Source: an uncultured Gammaproteobacteria bacterium (GTDB taxonomy: Bacteria > Pseudomonadota > Gammaproteobacteria > DRLM01). Taken from it: a DNA stretch of 64,000 nucleotides. Below the pieces are notes generated by a model, which was not told where the DNA came from, made no database searches, and saw only the letters and a list, made by a program, of their open reading frames with translations. Numbering within the stretch: position 1 is the first letter of the stretch; each line of letters starts with the position of its first letter. This document shows positions 10,555 to 59,793 of the stretch, in pieces. The stretch spans positions 672,001 to 736,000 of the forward strand of contig CAVSNY010000007.1 of assembly GCA_963729605.1 (NCBI GenBank), given 5' to 3'. The position numbers and the translations under genes were made by a program.

Positions 10555-11235
10555 TCAGAGGGCGAGGAATGCCGCGAGACGCAATTCCGCCGCCAACGCC
10601 GCGCTATCCACGGCGGCGAGATGGGGAAACGTGGCTAGCCGCGGCGCGGCGAGCCGCGTCTCCAGCGTCGCGATGTTTTCCGCGAGCCGCTCCATCGCCG
10701 GATCGATGCCATTCGCCACCCAGCCCGCCAGCCGCGCGCCGCTGCGGTCGATGGCCTCACTGGTCAGCAGCGCATGATTGAGGCAGCCGAGCCGCATCCC
10801 CACCACGAGAATCACCGGCAGCCGCAGCGCCACCGCCAAATCCGCGAAACTTTCTTGCTCGTTGAGCGGCACCCGCCAGCCGCCGGCGCCTTCCACGATC
10901 ACGCACTCCGCCCGCGCGGCGAGCGGCGCGTAATGCGCGTGGAGCGTCGCCACGCTCAATTCCACGCCCGCCTCGCGTGCCGCGAGATGCGGCGCGATGG
11001 CGGCGGGCAGTGCAAAGGGATTCACCTCTTCATAACTCAGCGGGATATTACTCGCGGCGAGGAGTTGCAATGCATCGTCGTTGCGCCAGCCCTCGGCGGT
11101 GAGTACGCCGCCCGCCGCCACCGGCTTCATGCCCGCCACGCGTCGTCCCGTAGCCGCGAGGCGATGCACCAGTGCCGCCGCCGCCACGGTCTTGCCGACG
11201 CCGGTGTCGGTACCGGTGATGAAAAAACCGTTCAT
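10555..11235 (-). CDS. bioD: Dethiobiotin synthetase
   Basis: FITGTDTGVGKT, VEGAGG, LGCLNHALLT. Confidence 0.96.
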   Translation of the reverse strand: MNGFFITGTDTGVGKTVAAAALVHRLAATGRRVAGMKPVAAGGVLTAEGWRNDDALQLLAASNIPLSYEEVNPFALPAAIAPHLAAREAGVELSVATLHAHYAPLAARAECVIVEGAGGWRVPLNEQESFADLAVALRLPVILVVGMRLGCLNHALLTSEAIDRSGARLAGWVANGIDPAMERLAENIATLETRLAAPRLATFPHLAAVDSAALAAELRLAAFLAL

Positions 11236-12134
11236 GAAGCGCGACCCGGCGCGCGGCGGCGCAGGCTGTCCACCGCGATCTTCACCACGCCATCTTCCCG
11301 CAGATTCACCGCACTGCTCGGCGCCCACGCTAAACCGTATACCACCTCGAAGGTCGCGGGCAGCACGCCGTCGCGGCGGCGGGCCTCGTAGGCGTCGGTC
11401 ATCGCACGCAGCCGTCCCTTGCCGGTGAGGCCGCGCGCGCGGCCGGCGGCGGCATTACGCGCGCCGAGGCTTTTGAGTTCACGCATGAGTTGGTGCGCGT
11501 CCGCGTAGGTGAGCGTGAGCCGTTCGGCGTCCATCACCGGATCGGCGAAGGCGGCGCGCTGCAAGGCGTCGCCGACGTCGTGCATGTCGATGAAGGCGCT
11601 GACGTGCTGCGCCGCGTCGGCCCGCGCCCACGCCTCGCGCAATTCTTTCAACGTGTCGGGGCCGAAGGTGGAGAACAGCAGCAGCCCGCCCGGTTTCAAC
11701 ACGCGGCGGAATTCGCCGAACACGGCGTCGAGGTCGTTGCACCACTGCAAGGTGACATTGGAAAACACCAGATCGGCGCTGCCATTCGCGAGCGGCAGAC
11801 GTTCGGCGTCGCCGCAGACGAAGCGTTGTTTGCCGCGCAAGCGTGCCAGCAGCCCCGCGTGGCGCCGCGCGCTGCGCAGCATATTGGGGGCGAGATCGAG
11901 GGCGATGATCCGCGCGCCGGCGTAACGCTGCGCCAGCGCCTTGCTGAGGTGGCCGGTGCCCGCGCCGACGTCGAGCACGGTGCCAGGCCGCAGACGGATG
12001 TAGTCGAGCCGTTCCAGCAGGCGCGCGCCGACTTCGCGCTGCAATACCGCGACGCGGTCATAACTCGCGGCGGCACGGTCGAAGCTGCCGCGCACGCGGC
12101 GTTTGTCGAGATAGTAAGCGGTGTCATCCGTCAT
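11232..12134 (-). CDS. bioC: Malonyl-ACP O-methyltransferase
   Basis: FDRAAASYD, LDVGAGTG, STFGPDTLKEL. Confidence 0.95.
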   Translation of the reverse strand: MTDDTAYYLDKRRVRGSFDRAAASYDRVAVLQREVGARLLERLDYIRLRPGTVLDVGAGTGHLSKALAQRYAGARIIALDLAPNMLRSARRHAGLLARLRGKQRFVCGDAERLPLANGSADLVFSNVTLQWCNDLDAVFGEFRRVLKPGGLLLFSTFGPDTLKELREAWARADAAQHVSAFIDMHDVGDALQRAAFADPVMDAERLTLTYADAHQLMRELKSLGARNAAAGRARGLTGKGRLRAMTDAYEARRRDGVLPATFEVVYGLAWAPSSAVNLREDGVVKIAVDSLRRRAPGRAS

Positions 12135-12903
12135 GCGGGTGTTCCAAAAAAGTGGTGAGCGTCGCGCGAAATTCGCGCGGGTGCGAAAGAAAGGGCGCGT
12201 GGCCGGCGGCGTCGAGCACGTCGAATCGCAGCGCCGGCAGGTGTTGCCGCATCGCGGCGCCGACGCCCGCGGGCACCAGCATGTCGCGTCCGCCCAGGAT
12301 CAATTGTGTCGGGCGCGAAAGACGGCCGAGCTGGGGGCGCAGATCCGCGCCGCGCAAAATCGCCAAGCCGGCGCGCAGCGCCGGCAACGCCGGCGGCGGG
12401 TGTTGCAGCAGCGCCGCACGCAAGGCGCGCAGCGTCTCGCGCCCCTCGGTGCCGGCGGCGACTTGCAGACTCAGAAAACGCTCGAGCGTAGCGTGATAAT
12501 CCTGCTCCAGGGCGCGGGCGAAACCGGCGAGCACCGCCGCGTCCATGGCGTGCGGCCAATCCGGCGCGGTGATGAAGCGCGGCGAACTCGCCACCAAAAT
12601 CAATTTGTCCACCCGCGCCGGTGCGGTGAGCGTCATTTGCGTCGCGACCATGCCGCCCAGCGACCAGCCCAGCCAGATCGCGCGCGGCGGCGCGGCGGCG
12701 GCCACGGCGTCGGTCACCGTCGCGAGATCGAAGTTTTGTATCAGCGGCGGCGAACGGCCGTGGCCGGGGAGATCGATGAGCGTGACGCGATAACGCGGCG
12801 CCAATTGTTCCGCCAGCGCGGCGAACACGCCGCCATGCAGGCCCCAGCCGTGCAGCAACACCAGGTCGGGCCCGAGTCCGAATTGCTCGGCGTGCAGATT
12901 CAT
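12124..12903 (-). CDS. bioH: Pimeloyl-ACP methyl ester esterase
   Basis: [21 protein letters not shown]. Confidence 0.95.
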
Positions 12904-14717
12904 AATACCGCTTCCAACGCCGCGAGCAGTCGATCGATCTGCGCCTCGCTGTGCGCCGCCGACAGAGTGATGCGGAGGCGCGCGGTGCCGGCCGGCACCG
13001 TCGGCGGGCGGATCGCGGTGACGTAGATGCCGCGCGCGCGGAGGGCCGCGCTCATCGCCAGCGCCCGTTCCGAGTCGCCGACCAGCAGCGGTTGTATCGG
13101 CGTCACGGACGGCAGCAAATTCGCGCCGAGCTGCGCGGCGCCGCGGCGGAAACGCGCGATGAGGGCGTGCAGGTGTTCGCGCCGCCAACTTTCCTCCTGC
13201 GCGAGCCGCAGGCCGGTCAAGGTGGCGTGAGCGACGGCCGGCGGCAGCGCCGTGGTGTAGATGTACGGACGCGCGCGTTGAACGATGTATTCGATCAAAT
13301 CATCACTGCCGGCGACGAAGGCGCCGAAACCGCCGAGGGCCTTGCCGAGGGTGCCGATCAGGATGGGCACCGCCGCGTGATCGAGGCCATAGTGTTCGAC
13401 GCTGCCGCGGCCGTCCGCGCCCACCACGCCGAGGCCGTGGGCGTCGTCCACCATCAGCCAGGCGTCGTGTCGTTGCGCGAGGTCGGCGAGCCGCGGCAGC
13501 GGCGCGAGGTCGCCGTCCATGCTGAAGACGCCGTCGGTGAGGATGAGGGTGGTGGCGGTGTCGGGTTCATCGCCATGTTCCACGCCCTCACCCCCAGCCC
13601 CTCTCCCGCTCGAGGGAGAGGGGGGCGAAAGCCCTTCTCCCGTAAACGGGAGAAGGGATGAGGGTGTAGGTCGATGTCGCGCAAGCTGATTCCAGATCGC
13701 CTCGACTACGGCCTCGGTTTCAGCCAGCACTTGGTCATTCCAGTAGCGCAGTACAGTCAAACCGCGTTCGTGCATGAACGCCGTGCGTTGCTCGTCATAG
13801 GCCTGTTGCGCACTGTGCTGGCCGCCATCCAGCTCGATTACCAGGCCGTGCTCTTCGCAATAGAAGTCGGCGATGTAGTGGCCGATGGGATGCTGGCGGC
13901 GAAACTTCGCGCCGCCGAGACGGCGATCGCGCAGACACTGCCACAACCGTTGCTCGGCGTCGGTGGCGCTGTGCCGGAGGTCGCGGGCGTGTTGCAACAG
14001 ATCGCTCGGTAGGCGTGCCGCGGGTCTTGGGGCAGGCGGGGCGTCGCCGCCCTCATCCCCAACCCCTCTCCCGCTTACGGGAGAAGGGCTTTCGCACCCC
14101 TCTCCCGTAAGCGGGAGAGGGGTGGGCGAGCACACGGCGTCAGTGTCCCATTGGCCTAATCTTTCGCTCCCCTCTCCCGTAAGCGGGAGAGGGGTGGGGG
14201 GTGAGGGTCTCGGCATGTGCCGCGAATTTTTTTGGACGCCCAATCGCCGCGCCAAGTCGTCCACGTCATTGTGAGCGTAACGCCGCAGTCGCGCGCCGGA
14301 GAGGAGTCCCGCGTCCAATAACGACGCGTGGTTGAGCCGGTCCTCGAATACCGCATCGCCGCGCCCCGCCAGCGCGGCGACCACGCCGAGATTGGCCATG
14401 TAGCCGGTGGAAAACAACAGGGCGCGTGGCCGTTGGGTGAACGCCGCCAGCGCTTCTTCCAATTCGTGATGCGGCCGCTGATGGCCGGTGACGAGGTGTG
14501 AGGCGCCGCTGCCGACGCCGTATTTATCCGCCCCTTCCTTCAGCGCGGCGATCATTCGCGGATGATTGGCGAGGCCGAGGTAATCGTTGCTGCAAAACGA
14601 GAGATACGGCGTGCCGTCGATCACGATCTCCGCGCCTTGCGGCGTTTCCATCACGGCGCGGCGCCGATATTGGTGGCGCGTCCGTATTGCCGCGAGCGCA
14701 GCGGCGAGGTCTTTCAT
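12900..14717 (-). CDS. bioF: 8-amino-7-oxononanoate synthase with in-frame DUF559/repeat insertion
   Basis: [35 protein letters not shown] and IRPPTVP are all intact; 605 aa versus the usual ~385. Confidence 0.95.
13585..13664. repeat. Two palindromic family-A repeat units in inverted arrangement
   Basis: CCCCTCTCCCgctcgaGGGAGAGGGG and CCCTTCTCCCGtaaaCGGGAGAAGGG. Confidence 0.9.
14050..14207. repeat. Three palindromic family-A repeat units
   Basis: CCCCTCTCCCGcttaCGGGAGAAGGG plus two copies of CCCCTCTCCCGtaagCGGGAGAGGGG. Confidence 0.9.
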
Positions 14718-14994
14718 GACGGCGCACCCGGAGGCATGAAAGCGGGCATAGCGATTTCCACGTGAGAGATATCGCTCAACATGCGCGACGCCGGTCCTTC
14801 TTCGCAGTGCAGGAAATGCAGCGGAGACCCAAGCGAATGACTGGGTGGGCTTGCACGTTCTCCGAGGCTCTCATAGCGCGCACCAAAACGTGCGTATCCG
14901 CGTGCGGCGCGTTCGAACAGGATTCCCACGAACGGAAGAAGCGGCATGTGTAGCGATGCGCTGCCGAACAATTTTATATTCGCGGGAACGCTGG

Positions 14995-16038
14995 TTACGC
15001 CGTCGCCGATATCACCGCGGGTGTGTCCGCCGCGCGCCGCTGCTGGGTGTCGCCGCGTGCGCGCACTTTGAGGTCGTCGAGCATCTTGAGGTCGTCGCTC
15101 ACTTGGCGGCCCTTGGTGGTGAGGTAGTCGCCGATCATCACACCGGAAGCGCCGGCGAAGAAGATCATCGCCTGCAAGTCGCGCAGGAAGTGGCGGCCGC
15201 CGGCGATGCGGATCTCGGCGCGCGGCAGCATATAGCGGAACACCGCGATCATGTGCAGGATTTCGAGCGGCTGCATCGGCTGTTGTTTGGCCATGGGCGT
15301 GCCGTCGATGGGATTCAAGAAATTGAGCGGCACCGATTCGACATTCAAATTGCGCAGCGTCTCGGCGAGCTCGATGCGCTGGTCGAGCGACTCGCCCATG
15401 CCGAGGATGCCGCCGGCGCACACGCGCAGGCCCGCGTTCACGGCGTGGCGGATGGTGTCGATGTTTTCCTGGTAGGTGTGGGTGGTGCAGACGTTGTGGA
15501 AAAAGCTCTCGGCGGTTTCGAGGTTGTGGTGATAGTTCTCCATGCCCATCGCCTTCAGCATCTCGGCGCTTTCCTGGTCGAGGGCGCCCAGGCTGGCGCA
15601 GCGGCCGATGTCCGAGTGTTTTTTGAGTTCGCCGAAATATTCGCGCAATTGCTCGCGCTCTTTGGCGCCGCGCACGCCCCAGCCCTTCGACACCACGCCG
15701 AAGTCGCTGGCGCCCCATTCGCGCGCGCGATGGGCCTGTTCCACCAGTTGTTCGGCGGGGATGTAATTGTATTTGGGCGCGGCGGTTTTGTGATGGCCGC
15801 TCTGGCCGCAGAAGGAACAGTTCTCCGAACAATTGCCCGAGCGCACGTTGGAGATGGCGCAGACTTCCACCTCGTCGCCGCGAAAGGTCTTGCGCAGGCG
15901 GTCGGCGCCGGCCATCAGCCAGGGCAGGTAATCATGGTCGAGGCGGATCAGCCAGCGGCCTTCGTCGGCGGTCATGTCGCCGCCCGCCAGGATGCGCTGG
16001 GTGATGCCGTCGATGCGTTGATAAATAGAGTTGTCCAT
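14995..16038 (-). CDS. bioB: Biotin synthase
   Basis: Radical SAM CSENCSFC, YHHNLET, VPLNFLNPIDGTP; first gene of bioBFHCD. Confidence 0.95.
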   Translation of the reverse strand: MDNSIYQRIDGITQRILAGGDMTADEGRWLIRLDHDYLPWLMAGADRLRKTFRGDEVEVCAISNVRSGNCSENCSFCGQSGHHKTAAPKYNYIPAEQLVEQAHRAREWGASDFGVVSKGWGVRGAKEREQLREYFGELKKHSDIGRCASLGALDQESAEMLKAMGMENYHHNLETAESFFHNVCTTHTYQENIDTIRHAVNAGLRVCAGGILGMGESLDQRIELAETLRNLNVESVPLNFLNPIDGTPMAKQQPMQPLEILHMIAVFRYMLPRAEIRIAGGRHFLRDLQAMIFFAGASGVMIGDYLTTKGRQVSDDLKMLDDLKVRARGDTQQRRAADTPAVISATA

Positions 16039-16146
16039 GGCGAGTCTTCCGCTTGATGTCGAGGGTCGTTCCCTTGCCGGGCAAGGGCGTTTATGATGGC
16101 TGCGTTCCCGCGAGTAGGGGGTGTCCGGCCCTAACTGCCTGCAAGC

Positions 16147-16911
16147 ATGTCTAAACCCGATGAATATAATCGCTTAATCCCGCCTGTCAACCGAATCTTG
16201 CTCAGCAAGGTTAACCGATGGATTAAAAACGCGCAGGACTGGCTGATGCCCGCCCAGTGTGTATTGTGCGGCGGCGCCGGTGAAGACGGCCGCAATCTCT
16301 GCGCGGCCTGCCGGGACGATTTACCCGCGATGGGGCCGGCCTGCCGGTCATGCGCGTTACCGCTGCCGGTGGCCGGGTTATGCGGGATTTGCCAGCGCCG
16401 TCCCCGGCCGTTCGCCGCGGCGGTCGCCGCCTTTCGTTATCAGCCGCCGTTGGATAATTTGATACAGCGCCTCAAATTCCAGGATGACATCCGTTTGGCC
16501 GGTTTGTTGGGGGAGTTGACGGCGGAAGGTCTGTGCGCCCGGTTTGCGACGCCGCCGCCGGTGGATGTGATGATGCCGGTGCCCCTGCACGCGGCGCGAT
16601 TGCGCGAGCGGGGTTTCAATCAGGCCTTGGAATTGGCCCGCCCCCTGGCGCGGCGTTTGAATTTGCCCTTGGATACCCGTTGCGCCGAGCGGGTCCGCGC
16701 CACCGTGCCGCAGAGCGAACTGCCCGCCAAACTGCGCCGGCGCAATATCAAAGGCGCGTTCCGGGTGACGCCGGCGGTGGCCGGGCGACGGGTGGCGGTG
16801 GTGGACGATGTGATGACCACCGGCCACACCGTGAGTGAATTCGCCGCGACGCTGCGCCGCGCCGGCGCGGCCTCGGTGACGGTGTGGCTGTGCGCGCGGG
16901 TTCCGCTATAA
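16147..16911 (+). CDS. comF: ComF/GntX-family protein (start uncertain, possibly 16246)
   Basis: CxxC zinc motifs, RERGFNQA, VVDDVMTTG; divergent from bioB. Confidence 0.9.
   Translation: MSKPDEYNRLIPPVNRILLSKVNRWIKNAQDWLMPAQCVLCGGAGEDGRNLCAACRDDLPAMGPACRSCALPLPVAGLCGICQRRPRPFAAAVAAFRYQPPLDNLIQRLKFQDDIRLAGLLGELTAEGLCARFATPPPVDVMMPVPLHAARLRERGFNQALELARPLARRLNLPLDTRCAERVRATVPQSELPAKLRRRNIKGAFRVTPAVAGRRVAVVDDVMTTGHTVSEFAATLRRAGAASVTVWLCARVPL
16185..16216. promoter_or_regulatory. BirA biotin operator
   Basis: TGTCAACC-N16-GGTTAACC upstream of bioB, resembling TGTAAACC-N16-GGTTTACA. Confidence 0.75.
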
Positions 16912-28248: not shown

Positions 28249-29583
28249 TTAATCCAGCCCCAATTTTTTCAGCCGGTAGCGCAGGGCGCGGAAGGAAATG
28301 CCCAGGAGTTTAGCGGCGGCGGTTTTGTTGTAACGGGTCTGTTCCAGGGCCTTGACGATGGTGTCCCGCGCGATGGAATCCAGAAAGGGTTCGAGCGGCA
28401 CCGGGCCGCCGGCGGCAGGCGCGGCCGCGCCGGTGCTGGGCAGGCGCAAGTCCGCGGCGTGGATGGTGTTGCCCTCGCAAAGGGTGATGGCCCGTTCGAG
28501 GATGTTTTCCAGTTCCCGCACATTGCCGGGAAAGGGATACTGCGATAAGGCGTGAATGGCGTCTGCGCTGAGTCGCGGGGTTTCCTCACCGCTTTGCGCA
28601 GCGATGCGCTGCAGGATGTGCTCGGCGAGCAGGGTGATGTCGTCGCCGCGTTCGCGCAACGGCGGCACGTGCAGCTCGATCACGTTGATGCGGTAGAACA
28701 GGTCCTGGCGGAATCCGCCCGTCTCCACCAGCGCGGCCAGATCTTTATGGGTGGCGCTCAATATGCGCACGTCGGTGGGCATCTCCTTTTGCGCGCCGAT
28801 CGGCCGCACGGATTTTTCCTGGATGACCCGCAGCAGTTTCACCTGCATGTGCAGCGGCAGGTCCGCCACTTCGTCGAGAAACAAGGTGCCGCCGTGGGCC
28901 GCTTGGAATAAACCATCCTTATCCGCCACGGCGCCGGTGAAACTGCCTTTTTTGTGGCCGAAGAATTCACTTTCCACTAACTCGCCGGGGATGGCGCCGC
29001 AATTGACCGGGATGAACGGCTTGTCGGCGCGCGGGCCTTTGTCGTGGATCAGACGCGCCACCAGTTCTTTACCGACCCCCGACTCGCCGCTGATATAAAC
29101 CGGCGCCTGGCTGCGGGCCAGTTTGGCGATGGTGGCCTGGATCTTTTTCATCGCCGGCGAGTCGCCGAGCAGGCTCAGGCTCGAACTCCGCATCGTCTTG
29201 GCCTGGGTCTGCGAGAGTTTGAGCGCGGTGTGCACCAGGTTACGCAGCACCTGCAAGTCCACCGGTTTGGAGACGAAGTCGAAGGCGCCGGCCTTGAGCG
29301 CGCTGACCGCCGATTCCATATTGCCGTGGGCGGTGATGACCGCGACCGGGGTGTCGGGATAGTTTTTTTGGATGTGCTCGACCAGGTCGATGCCGTTGCC
29401 GTCGGGCAGGCGCATGTCGGTGAGGCATAAATCGAAGGGCTGGGCGGCGAGCAGGGCGCGGGCGCTGCTCAAATCTTGAGCGGCGGCGCTGGCGATATTC
29501 ATGCGGCCGAGGGTGATCTCGATCAGCTCGCGGATATCCGGTTCGTCGTCGACCACCAGGGCGATGGGTTGCTGTGTGCTCAC
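28249..29583 (-). CDS. pilR: sigma54-dependent response regulator PilR
   Basis: Receiver domain, GESGVGKE, GSFTGA, C-terminal HTH. Confidence 0.93.
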   Translation of the reverse strand: MSTQQPIALVVDDEPDIRELIEITLGRMNIASAAAQDLSSARALLAAQPFDLCLTDMRLPDGNGIDLVEHIQKNYPDTPVAVITAHGNMESAVSALKAGAFDFVSKPVDLQVLRNLVHTALKLSQTQAKTMRSSSLSLLGDSPAMKKIQATIAKLARSQAPVYISGESGVGKELVARLIHDKGPRADKPFIPVNCGAIPGELVESEFFGHKKGSFTGAVADKDGLFQAAHGGTLFLDEVADLPLHMQVKLLRVIQEKSVRPIGAQKEMPTDVRILSATHKDLAALVETGGFRQDLFYRINVIELHVPPLRERGDDITLLAEHILQRIAAQSGEETPRLSADAIHALSQYPFPGNVRELENILERAITLCEGNTIHAADLRLPSTGAAAPAAGGPVPLEPFLDSIARDTIVKALEQTRYNKTAAAKLLGISFRALRYRLKKLGLD

Positions 29584-31342: not shown

Positions 31343-31573
31343 TTACGGCCGATATTGGTCCAAGTGCCCTTGACTGCAGAAATGGAGGCCATCGCGCTGC
31401 AAGGCCTCGCCTTGCGGAATATGCAGGCCACAGTGGGCGCAGCGCACCATGTTGGTGTTGTCCCGCGGTTTGGCTTGGGGACCGGTCCCCTTCCTCGGCG
31501 CCAGCCAGCGTTTGACGGCGATGACCAGCAGCCATACGACGAAAGCGATGATGAGCAGGCGTAGCAGTGTCAT
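31343..31573 (-). CDS. PP0621-family small membrane protein
   Basis: TM segment plus MVRCAHCGLHIP...FCSQGH; upstream of pilS. Confidence 0.85.
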   Translation of the reverse strand: MTLLRLLIIAFVVWLLVIAVKRWLAPRKGTGPQAKPRDNTNMVRCAHCGLHIPQGEALQRDGLHFCSQGHLDQYRP

Positions 31574-32861: not shown

Positions 32862-33956
32862 ATGAAAATATCCCTAATAACAGCAATAACAACGGTGCAC
32901 ATGCTCGCGGGTTGCGCGCTGGCGCCGGGCATGCACATGAAGGAACAGGACGGCGCCACCACCGTTCCCCTTCCCGTCATAGAAGCGGGCGAGCCCGCCG
33001 TGCAGACTATCCCGATCACCCAAATCGACGCGGCCTGGGTGCGCGATCAAACTTCAAGTCGCACTAATGAGGCTTTGGCGTTGGCGCGGCCTTATGAGCC
33101 GTATCGCGTGGGTCCGCGCGACGTATTGACCATAACGGTATGGGATCATCCCGAACTCACCATTCCCGCAGGCGAATTCCGTTCGGCGGACATCTCCGGC
33201 TACCGCGTCGGTGAAGACGGCATGCTGTTTTATCCCTATGTCGGCGTCGTCACCGCCGCGGGCAAGACGGTGGAGGAGTTGCGGCGCCTGCTGACCGAAG
33301 GGCTCGCCCCATTCATAGCCAAGCCCCAGCTCGATGTGCGCGTGGCGGCGTTTCGCAGCCAGCGCACCTATGTCGTAGGTGAACTCGTCAAACCCGGTGT
33401 ACAAGTGATCACCGATGTCCCGCTGACCGTCACCGAGGCGCTGGACCGGGCCGGCGGGCCGAGCCCGGCGGCGGACATGAGTCGTACAACGCTGGCGCGT
33501 GACGGCAATATCTATCGCATCGATCTCAACGCCCTCTATCAGGAAGGCGATATCACCCAGAATGTCCTGTTGCAAGACGGCGACGTGCTCAACATCCCCG
33601 ATCGCGCGCAAAACAAAATTCTAGTGATGGGTGAAGTGCTGAAGCCCGAATCCCAGCTCATGGTCAAAAGCCGCAAGACGCTGGCCGAGGCGATCAGTGA
33701 TGCCGGCGGCGTCAGCGTCTTCAGTTCGGATCCGCGCCGCATCTATGTCTTCCGCAACCGCCCGGATCGGCCTTTGGTCTTCCGCCTCGATGGTAAAACA
33801 CCGGACGCCATGCTGCTGGCCGAGCGTTTCGAATTGGAGCCGCGCGATGTCGTTTACGTCGACACCGCGGGAGTTTCGCGTTGGAACCGCGTGCTCAGTC
33901 AACTCCTGCCGTCTTTTAATGTAACGACGCGCCTGTTGCCGGGAACGGCGCAATGA
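32862..33956 (+). CDS. wza: Polysaccharide export lipoprotein Wza
   Basis: Lipobox LAGC, YRVGPRDVLTITVWDHPEL, SRWNRVLSQLLP. Confidence 0.95.
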   Translation: MKISLITAITTVHMLAGCALAPGMHMKEQDGATTVPLPVIEAGEPAVQTIPITQIDAAWVRDQTSSRTNEALALARPYEPYRVGPRDVLTITVWDHPELTIPAGEFRSADISGYRVGEDGMLFYPYVGVVTAAGKTVEELRRLLTEGLAPFIAKPQLDVRVAAFRSQRTYVVGELVKPGVQVITDVPLTVTEALDRAGGPSPAADMSRTTLARDGNIYRIDLNALYQEGDITQNVLLQDGDVLNIPDRAQNKILVMGEVLKPESQLMVKSRKTLAEAISDAGGVSVFSSDPRRIYVFRNRPDRPLVFRLDGKTPDAMLLAERFELEPRDVVYVDTAGVSRWNRVLSQLLPSFNVTTRLLPGTAQ

Positions 33957-59579: not shown

Positions 59580-59610
59580 CCCCTCTCCCGCGAGCGGGAG
59601 AGGGTGAGGG
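59580..59610. repeat. Family-A palindromic unit, opposite orientation
   Basis: cccctctcccgcgagcgggagagggtgaggg. Confidence 0.75.
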
Positions 59611-59793
59611 GGCTCCCCCCGGCGGGAGCCGGAAGTAAGACGCGTCGCTCAACCGGCCCGTCTCCGGGCTTTCAGTCCGCCATTCAACTCCTCCGCTTTA
59701 GCCGGGGTCGTTTATTTGAGCTTTCCGGCCCGGGTTTTTACCCGGCGGGAAAACCCAGTACAATAGCCGTCCATTATGTCGAGTAAGCCGCCC

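Follow-up and report, generated by a model that had tools for sequence, protein, structure and literature searches.

The Rickettsia palindromic elements are in-frame palindromes within housekeeping genes, and are translated. No nuclease gene is known to be associated with them, and they belong to a sequence family different from the one described here and are not known outside Rickettsia. In REP/RAYT systems the enzyme is a Y1 (IS200-like) transposase, and the REPs are without a third triplex block. The BoxC/PIT/TM repeats, known in Escherichia coli from the 1990s on, are not known to have an enzyme tied to them. This report concerns the bioF gene of an uncultured Gammaproteobacteria bacterium, within a stretch of 64,000 nucleotides (contig CAVSNY010000007.1, positions 672,001–736,000; hereafter the window), where a DUF559 nuclease domain is bracketed by inverted BoxC/TM repeats, all in the reading frame of the host gene. 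I consider that this is probably a mobile, homing-like cassette of nuclease and repeats, tolerated in a permissive loop of BioF and translated through.

The E. coli K-12 form of the repeat, TM_ECO, is present in 23 copies and has been reported in more than 260 genomes (Holder et al., 2015; PMC4666352). In the portion of that paper available, the motif is described as exclusively intergenic in strain MG1655, with no mobility activity nearby, instability of the E. coli genome is connected with TM repeats, and the word "endonuclease" appears 0 times. The bioF units share with BoxC/PIT/TM_ECO, as described there, the three-block unit, the tandem inverted pairs and an association with local rearrangement. 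However, the E. coli units are intergenic and have no mobility gene, while those of bioF are in coding frame and bracket a nuclease.

The available passages of three further papers place the nuclease. DUF559 has been grouped with VSR, DUF2726 and I-Bth0305I, an endonuclease of a group I intron (PMC3424549), the name EDxHD has been given to a DUF559 gene associated with an intein (PMC9403480), and Vsr-like homing endonucleases are described in introns, between split inteins, or as stand-alone inserts that split a gene in two (PMC2677866). The bioF cassette is like EDxHD and I-Bth0305I, as presented there, in belonging to the same nuclease clade, in residing inside conserved host genes, in its sporadic distribution and in occurring also without an intein. 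In contrast, the known examples are in introns or split inteins or break the host open reading frame (ORF), and have their own start codons, whereas the bioF cassette is part of one continuous ORF, contains no splicing element, comprises only the catalytic domain of ∼110 amino acids (aa), and has TM repeats on both sides. A second comparison is offered by the ShiLan-type insertion, a homing element in the DNA methylase of a phage that is free of stops, does not splice and conceals an HNH in another frame (PMC11855218). On the available text, both are stop-free in the host frame, are neither intein nor intron, are homing-like and contain an endonuclease. The ShiLan HNH has a GTG and a TAA of its own in a frame other than that of the host, is found in a phage, and is presented in an abstract that names no repeat family, whereas bioF carries a PD-(D/E)XK nuclease in the host frame.

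Anatomy of the bioF insert

The bioF ORF is a single uninterrupted frame that includes the insert (Table 1). Pfam Aminotran_1_2 matches the ORF in two separate stretches (E 1.2e-55), and the product passes the NCBIfam equivalog cut-off for BioF, insert notwithstanding. Alignment to the solved BioF 5jay (E 2.9e-102) is likewise in two stretches, query residues 4–159 matching 15–174 and query residues 386–602 matching 178–395, so that about 226 residues stand in place of a loop of about 3 in the solved enzyme; in BioF proteins elsewhere this loop has ∼3–10 residues. The pyridoxal phosphate (PLP)-binding and catalytic motifs, whose residues presumably have the roles of their counterparts in the E. 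coli 8-amino-7-oxononanoate synthase, are present in the translation and align with those of 5jay.

Table 1. Features of the bioF locus in window coordinates (strand -, reverse; aa numbering is that of the 605-aa ORF).
Feature	Position	Strand	Basis
bioF ORF, 605 aa, one uninterrupted frame including the insert	12900..14717	-	TIGR00858, 490 bits (cut-off 426)
BioF N-terminal part, aa 1–171	14205..14717	-	query 4–159 = 5jay 15–174
In-frame insert, 630 nt, 210 codons, aa 172–381, relative to the empty allele of congener G001	13575..14204	-	DNA junctions and protein alignment
N-side BoxC/TM cluster: three hairpins (∼14063–14088, 14097–14122, 14169–14194), 32-nt unique spacer, outer third blocks	14050..14204		motif compared with Table 1 of PMC4666352
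DUF559 (Vsr-like PD-(D/E)XK) nuclease domain, aa 240–345, 14/14 family-invariant residues	13683..14000	-	Pfam; 3hrl, E 2.4e-26
C-side tandem-inverted TM doublet: two hairpins between outer blocks CCCTCA.../...TGAGGG; inverted relative to the G003 doublet	13586..13665		
BioF C-terminal part, aa 382–605, with TLGKA motif	12900..13574	-	translation and 5jay alignment
bioB, upstream gene of the operon	14995..16038	-	TIGR00433, 377 bits (cut-off 225)
bioH, downstream gene, start codon uncertain, abuts the bioF stop	12124..12903	-	TIGR01738, 261 bits (cut-off 207)
bioC	11232..12134	-	TIGR02072, 257 bits (cut-off 185)

Within the insert, Pfam PF04480 (DUF559) is matched over profile positions 3–108 of 109 (E 1.7e-40), the sole other Pfam family at the E ≤ 0.01 level being a sub-threshold MTES_1575 match on the same stretch. 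This part also matches a solved "endonuclease-like protein" from Neisseria (3hrl), and the residues that are invariant across 39 embedded homologues are all retained. The nuclease frame is flanked by five copies of a 38-nt palindromic repeat, at 13590 and 13624 on the C-side and at 14055, 14089 and 14161 on the N-side, which form bracketing inverted arms of 47 nt and 69 nt, each 87% complementary. In the bioF frame the repeat arms encode Pro/Ser/Gly/Glu-rich peptides of the types PSP..GRG and PLP..GEG. The cassette has no start or stop codon of its own, and joins BioF at the residues ...RHMPRP/SPP... and ...GVEH/GDE... (the slash marks the junction). The C-side doublet is flipped between the window's own genome (G000; 3.48 Mb, 61% GC) and the congener G003, the two matching at 74 of 86 columns as reverse complements and at 57 of 86 directly; the change is a flip between the outer inverted blocks of the doublet itself, and the bioF frame is open through it in either orientation.

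Each repeat unit is built of a C/T arm, a G/A arm and an extra G-rich block (CCCTCTCCC-loop-GGGAGAGGG-loop-GGGTGAGGG), three blocks in all, the last of which has the form GGG(G/A)TGAGGG. Hairpins of this type number 94–99 in G000, against 0 for a control pattern read backwards, and the third block is found on exactly one side of 79 of the 99, against 10 of 5000 random positions. By their sequence, the repeats belong to the E. coli motif called BoxC, PIT or "TM", an intrastrand triplex, triplex formation being predicted here from the motif. 

An identification as REP/RAYT was rejected. Both arrangements have dispersed palindromes that flank the gene of a nuclease-type enzyme, in one or few copies per genome. 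However, the bioF-type repeats possess the third block and are not near the only Y1_Tnp (PF01797) match of G000, which is weak (E 5.4e-7) and lies at a contig end (C7:53–415), the closest hairpin on contig C7 being at 33303. 

Two splicing elements were also considered and rejected. No Hint or intein Pfam family was found at E ≤ 0.01 in the 605-aa ORF, and the junction residues are not intein-like. For a group I or II intron, Rfam was run in E-value mode over window positions 12000–16500, and returned 20 sub-threshold miRNA and snoRNA look-alikes on the hairpins, none of them an intron.

Much of this anatomy had been proposed in an earlier note, made on the window from its letters alone. The 605-aa BioF with an insert of about 220 residues and intact PLP motifs, the complete DUF559-type domain, the three plus two hairpin repeats with inverted ends, and the stop-free repeat peptides all hold as first described, while the limits of the insertion, given there as 13566–14237, become slightly narrower when set by the empty allele of G001 (Table 1). 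The note had also read the whole as a selfish nuclease-plus-palindrome element with repeat-coded linkers and neither intein nor intron. That reading gains comparative support, but the likeness to REP/RAYT which accompanied it does not, as the repeats are BoxC/TM.

Filled and empty bioF alleles

I searched 41 genomes (G000 and 40 relatives) with the BioF protein, and obtained a BioF match in 39. An insert is present at the same BioF loop in G000, in the congener G003, in G005, which is from another genus of the family, and in P0002, a 570-aa metagenome protein from a protein database. Another congener, G001, has a clean empty site, and a third, G002, has in the same loop one in-frame hairpin unit and no nuclease (...QPPLPSGEGGDEG...); the remaining family members with a complete bioF are empty. 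The number of repeat units differs between carriers, with 3 (G000), 0 (G003) and 1 (G005) on the N-side, and 2, 2 and ∼4–5, respectively, on the C-side, all in frame and stop-free.

The arrangement could in principle be an artefact, either a mis-assembly at the repeats or an inactivated bioF with an accidental GC-rich open frame. Spurious long ORFs are common in the G000 genome, with its 61% GC, and the short-read contigs of three metagenome runs (X1, X4 and X8) end at the hairpin clusters, overlapping consistently. However, a single 1687-nt contig from a fourth run, a wetland metagenome (X2), spans 12992–14690 and bridges the whole insert, with 60 differences and one 12-nt gap, and the same arrangement is seen in four independent assemblies, those of G003, G005 and P0002 being separate from that of G000. 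In none of the metagenome runs were as many as half of the sampled window words present. The BioF ratio of nonsynonymous to synonymous divergence (dN/dS) is 0.13–0.14 when the carriers G000 and G003 are compared, the product scores above the bioF equivalog cut-off, and no second alpha-oxoamine synthase or bioF copy was found in G000 with the BioF protein as query. An artefact or a dead gene is on this evidence highly improbable.

The metagenome runs further differ from the window in two places. Twelve nucleotides at 14132 are missing in all four, and 6 extra nucleotides (GGGATG) are found at 13654 in two of the four, as in G003; both are indel variation within the repeat clusters. Read joints that skip 757–1028 nt, with short sides of 29–41 nt and 85% likeness, were not counted as empty alleles of the same species, because they probably derive from bioF of other organisms.

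In pairs that include an empty allele, the dN/dS of BioF is 0.09–0.18, with values of 0.09–0.14 for filled as well as empty pairs, and that of the DUF559 core is 0.11–0.12 against the distant carrier G005, at saturated synonymous divergence (dS). These sequence comparisons argue that both the BioF and the DUF559 parts are under selection. They also bear on a possibility of the kind raised in the earlier note, and for which no support was obtained, namely a post-transcriptional loss of the insert through repeat pairing with RNA processing, or through ribosome bypass, which would give a BioF of ∼395 aa. The complementary arms that bracket the nuclease frame would suit such a process, yet no intron family is matched, purifying selection acts on the in-frame nuclease, and the frame is kept open despite varying unit numbers in four lineages and in the 73 other internal cases described below, which is expected only if the insert is translated. 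No ribosome bypass as long as 630 nt is known, and I regard removal or skipping as a very remote prospect.

A BioF tree without the insert columns has the topology (G006,(G005,(G002,((G000,(G003,G001)),(P0002, G010, G008,(G011,(G004,G009))))))), with support of 96/91 for the pairing of G003 with G001. The presence of the insert needs 4 state changes on this tree, and the host bioF of G003 is nearer to the empty G001 than to the carrier G000. Between G000 and G003, dS is 0.086 in the DUF559 core (6 of 73.5 synonymous sites), against 0.386 and 0.458 in the two BioF halves (98 of 301 sites), 0.463 in BioH and 0.367 in BioB (Fisher test for the core, p = 9e-6 when compared with the BioF halves and p = 3e-6 when compared with the four host segments together), which makes the core about five times younger than the surrounding genes. 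The linkers give a dS of 0.355, a value that is not meaningful because it was computed across the C-side doublet, which is inverted between the two genomes. Past the insert, identity in the first 60-nt window is 58/60 against ∼53/60 farther on, too small a difference to indicate co-conversion. In the DUF559 tree (113 columns), the BioF inserts fall in one poorly resolved group, and copies mostly cluster by host gene.

As with homing endonucleases, the element occupies a single site in a conserved gene sporadically, close relatives having the empty allele, and its history is discordant with that of its host, by a dS comparison in one pair that includes one fragmented assembly. The younger core fits a lateral exchange of cassettes at the same site between the G000 and G003 lineages, as far as sequence divergence can tell, and contradicts purely vertical descent. 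An old BioF-DUF559 fusion, inherited from the family ancestor, possibly serving the host, and precisely lost in most lineages, would explain why all four carriers have the insert in the same loop, why DUF559 is under purifying selection and why the BioF inserts share a group in the DUF559 tree. However, no fewer than 4 changes on the BioF tree would be required, and one of these would be a loss without a scar in G001, whose sister G003 is a carrier. The core dS also contradicts co-divergence with the host. The same cassette is moreover found in dozens of unrelated proteins, which makes a BioF-specific function unlikely. I therefore give such a fusion little credence. 

Several expectations of the earlier note are borne out by these comparisons. 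Relatives do provide an empty bioF allele (clean in G001, with a solo hairpin in G002), the history of the element departs from that of its host, being patchy and with a core dS below that of the host, and neither the mis-assembly nor, with the BioF protein as query, the additional bioF copy that could have undone its reading was seen.

DUF559 and repeats in other proteins and genomes

The nuclease region was compared with 5.8 billion proteins, and gave 95 proteins in the length range of 332–1059 aa. In 73 of these DUF559 is internal, flanked to either side by 60 aa or more of host protein. Peptide motifs encoded by the repeats (PSP..GRG, PLP..GEG, LS..ER; a pattern drawn up after inspection of the data) are found within 45 aa of the domain on both sides in 47 of the 73; another 25 have them on a single side, and 1 has none. 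In control windows taken from other parts of these proteins, the frequency is 21 of 774. The hosts include BioF (3 clusters), MetRS (∼22), LipB (9), CobT, LysRS, PriA, TruB, Fpg, MetH, MiaA and TsaD, as well as DNA methylases, HsdS, and an agmatine deiminase in which DUF559 is N-terminal. Without the length filter, the search yields 25,295 DUF559 cluster representatives at E ≤ 0.001. Among the best 150 of these, 43 are internal and 68 are short and free-standing; the motifs are on both sides in 34 of the internal representatives, on one side in 7 and on neither in 2, and the flanking peptides are visible in the consensus of their alignment. HsdS is the commonest host (19 of 39 scanned internal representatives), the rest including MmeI-type enzymes, CobT, class III aminotransferase, Maf, HolC, MetRS, MetH, Mfd and AnmK. 

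Judged from these sequences, the bioF case exemplifies an arrangement that is widespread and has apparently not been described. No paper on a link between DUF559 and BoxC/TM repeats, or on in-frame DUF559 cassettes in housekeeping genes, was found in a literature search that did not extend to subscription journals and supplements. Whether the link is truly unreported may depend on the supplementary tables of PMC4666352, which list the genes around TM sites.

Two relatives, G002 (C39) and G006 (C36), have DUF559 in frame within HsdM-type and N6_N4 DNA methylases. In two proteins, P0086 and P0095, DUF559 is bracketed by intein-like end blocks (...VHN, ...AHN), and P0095 has a Pfam Hint_2 match; the DUF559 family therefore also uses inteins.

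DUF559 genes were also analysed for repeats in their surroundings. In 13 related genomes, a hairpin (perfect stem of at least 8, pyrimidine and purine arms) is found within 70 bp of 16 of the 22 canonical DUF559 loci, on both sides in 6, and hairpin density is 7.8 per kb near the gene against 0.26 per kb at distances above 400 bp. Across the phylum, 151 genomes were sampled, of which 33 have DUF559 at E ≤ 1e-20; with G000 set aside and one locus, the best, taken from each of the remaining 32, a hairpin lies within 80 bp in 28, on both sides in 8, with at least one positive in all 17 other families, and with a distal density of 18 hairpins in 68,994 bp. Both such a link and the occurrence of DUF559 with such linkers in other ORFs had been named in the note as points to be checked. 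Two copies in the genome G039 that were scored negative carry the same unit with a 30-nt loop, missed by the first scan. The hairpin variants CCCTCTCCC, CCCTCCCCT and CCCCTCCT track DUF559 clades, each with a well-supported clade. At the level of whole genomes the agreement is looser: 10 of the 13 related genomes with canonical DUF559 have 13–136 type-A hairpins, and among the 28 genomes without it, two have 17 (G008) and 38 (G010), three have 5–7 and 23 have 0–1; these counts are given without a test because the relatives are not independent.

Free-standing genes have the organization [hairpin + G-block]-ATG-DUF559-[C-block + hairpin], with the G-block at the position expected of a ribosome-binding site, and with the downstream unit coding for the final residues of the nuclease (..PPLPNPSPARGEG). 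E. coli K-12 has a single DUF559 gene, ycjD (region NC_000913.3, 1351040–1351760), which terminates as ...RRSPSP* within a decayed hairpin, and is followed by a duplicated fragment of the ycjD 3' end and by TM_ECO no. 9. The copy embedded in bioF is the only intact DUF559 of G000 that is flanked by type-A units. A DUF559 fragment (profile positions 76–106) lies among three hairpins at C3:346308–346569 of the same genome, and resembles a decayed cassette. In the available part of a study on programmed inversions, "DUF559 domain-containing protein" is enriched (odds ratio 14) among the predicted targets (PMC9881135), which fits the inverted flanks of the bioF cassette.

A number of observations weigh against a mobile, homing-like cassette of nuclease and repeats. 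The host tree is from one gene with 380 columns, and the low core dS is from a single genome pair, in which the G003 assembly has 160 contigs and is 75% complete, so that a chimeric join at the repeats in G003 could mimic a recent transfer. The BioF inserts are not separated from methylase-borne copies in the DUF559 tree (SH-aLRT [Shimodaira–Hasegawa-like approximate likelihood ratio test] 83, open fork), and for the insert of G005 and P0002, independent entry and inheritance with precise losses cannot be fully told apart. The nuclease domain, of ∼110 aa, is without an obvious module for the recognition of a long target, unlike I-Bth0305I. Finally, no hairpin was found near 6 of the 22 related and 4 of the 32 phylum-wide DUF559 loci, 3 of the 13 related genomes with canonical DUF559 have zero type-A hairpins, and G008 and G010 have their hairpins without canonical DUF559.

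The hairpins of G008 and G010 are also among the observations that would suit a passive role of the nuclease. The repeats would then rearrange by themselves, through triplex or hairpin slippage and recombination, with DUF559 either carried along or acting as a Vsr-type repair nuclease beneficial to the host. Consistent with this are the nuclease-free solo hairpins in frame in the bioF of G002 and in dnaE, lhr and mtnA of G000, the flip of the C-side doublet, the instability to which TM repeats are linked in E. coli with no mobility gene, as far as described in PMC4666352, and a Caulobacter DUF559 protein that has been proposed as a Vsr-type repair enzyme, in the portion of PMC12907096 available. 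However, the nuclease itself is conserved between flanking units across phyla, the hairpin variant co-varies with the DUF559 clade, free-standing genes take the unit as their 5' and 3' ends, and neither the host gene nor the sequence next to the core is as young as the core itself. DUF559 is moreover found in an intein context, and its relatives are proven homing endonucleases, according to the parts of the literature cited above. A passive role is for these reasons rather unlikely, although it deserves more weight than the alternatives treated earlier.

A more tentative proposal may also be made, namely that the BoxC/PIT/TM triplex repeats have in DUF559 nucleases the partner enzyme that they have so far lacked, much as REPs have RAYTs. 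The autonomous element would be [TM]-DUF559-[inverted TM], and solo and tandem-inverted TMs would be its non-autonomous derivatives. I consider this possible, and somewhat less probable than not. As the units are stop-poor and encode flexible peptides, this proposal would add in-frame read-through as a third route into essential genes, besides inteins and introns. Since the only intact DUF559 of G000 flanked by type-A units is in BioF, a biotin enzyme may carry the sole nuclease for ∼94 repeats.

Proposed route and minor features

The observations may be combined in the following model. The bioF gene would carry a composite selfish cassette, a DUF559 frame bracketed by inverted BoxC/TM units, through which the ribosome would read uninterrupted, with no splicing of protein or RNA. 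The C/T-rich and G/A-rich repeat arms would be translated into Pro/Ser/Gly/Glu-rich linkers, and the nuclease would be produced as a domain appended to a BioF that is still functional. On an evolutionary time scale the cassette would be mobile, several lineages having acquired or exchanged it at the same bioF loop. Most likely the nuclease would cause a break, or the repeats an instability, and homologous repair would then copy a filled allele.

If this is correct, a nuclease of the homing type can persist in essential enzymes without splicing, by means of permissive loops and repeat-coded flexible linkers, which would widen the range of ways in which selfish elements inhabit genes. It would account for the odd DUF559 "fusion" annotations of MetRS, LipB, CobT and HsdS, and would provide a candidate partner enzyme for BoxC/PIT/TM repeats, together with a hypothesis for the DUF559 substrate, namely that the flanks of the nuclease gene themselves adopt the non-B structures on which it acts. 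Cassettes of linker, domain and linker that occur naturally and are tolerated by many enzymes may also be of practical interest for the engineering of domain insertions.

Solo TM hairpins are found in frame in several genes of G000. One is located within dnaE, between the PHP and pol III alpha domains (C5:201207–201230), three lie between domains of the Lhr helicase (C4:28581–28604, 28668–28691 and 31357–31380), and one is in the gene of an IF-2B/MtnA-family protein, mtnA (C5:116942–116965). Together with the hairpin in the bioF of G002, these resemble the Rickettsia palindromic elements. Hairpins are evenly spaced at C3:214402–215162 (∼277 nt) and C6:188737–189560 (∼350 nt) of the same genome, a regularity that suggests tandem arrays of longer units with two hairpins each.

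In the window, bioF is part of an operon in the order bioB-bioF-bioH-bioC, in which every gene is above its NCBIfam cut-off. A solo three-block unit (CCCCTCTCCCGCGAGCGGGAGAGGGTGAGGGGG) is located elsewhere in the window, at 59580–59612, in an intergenic position between convergent or adjacent ORFs.

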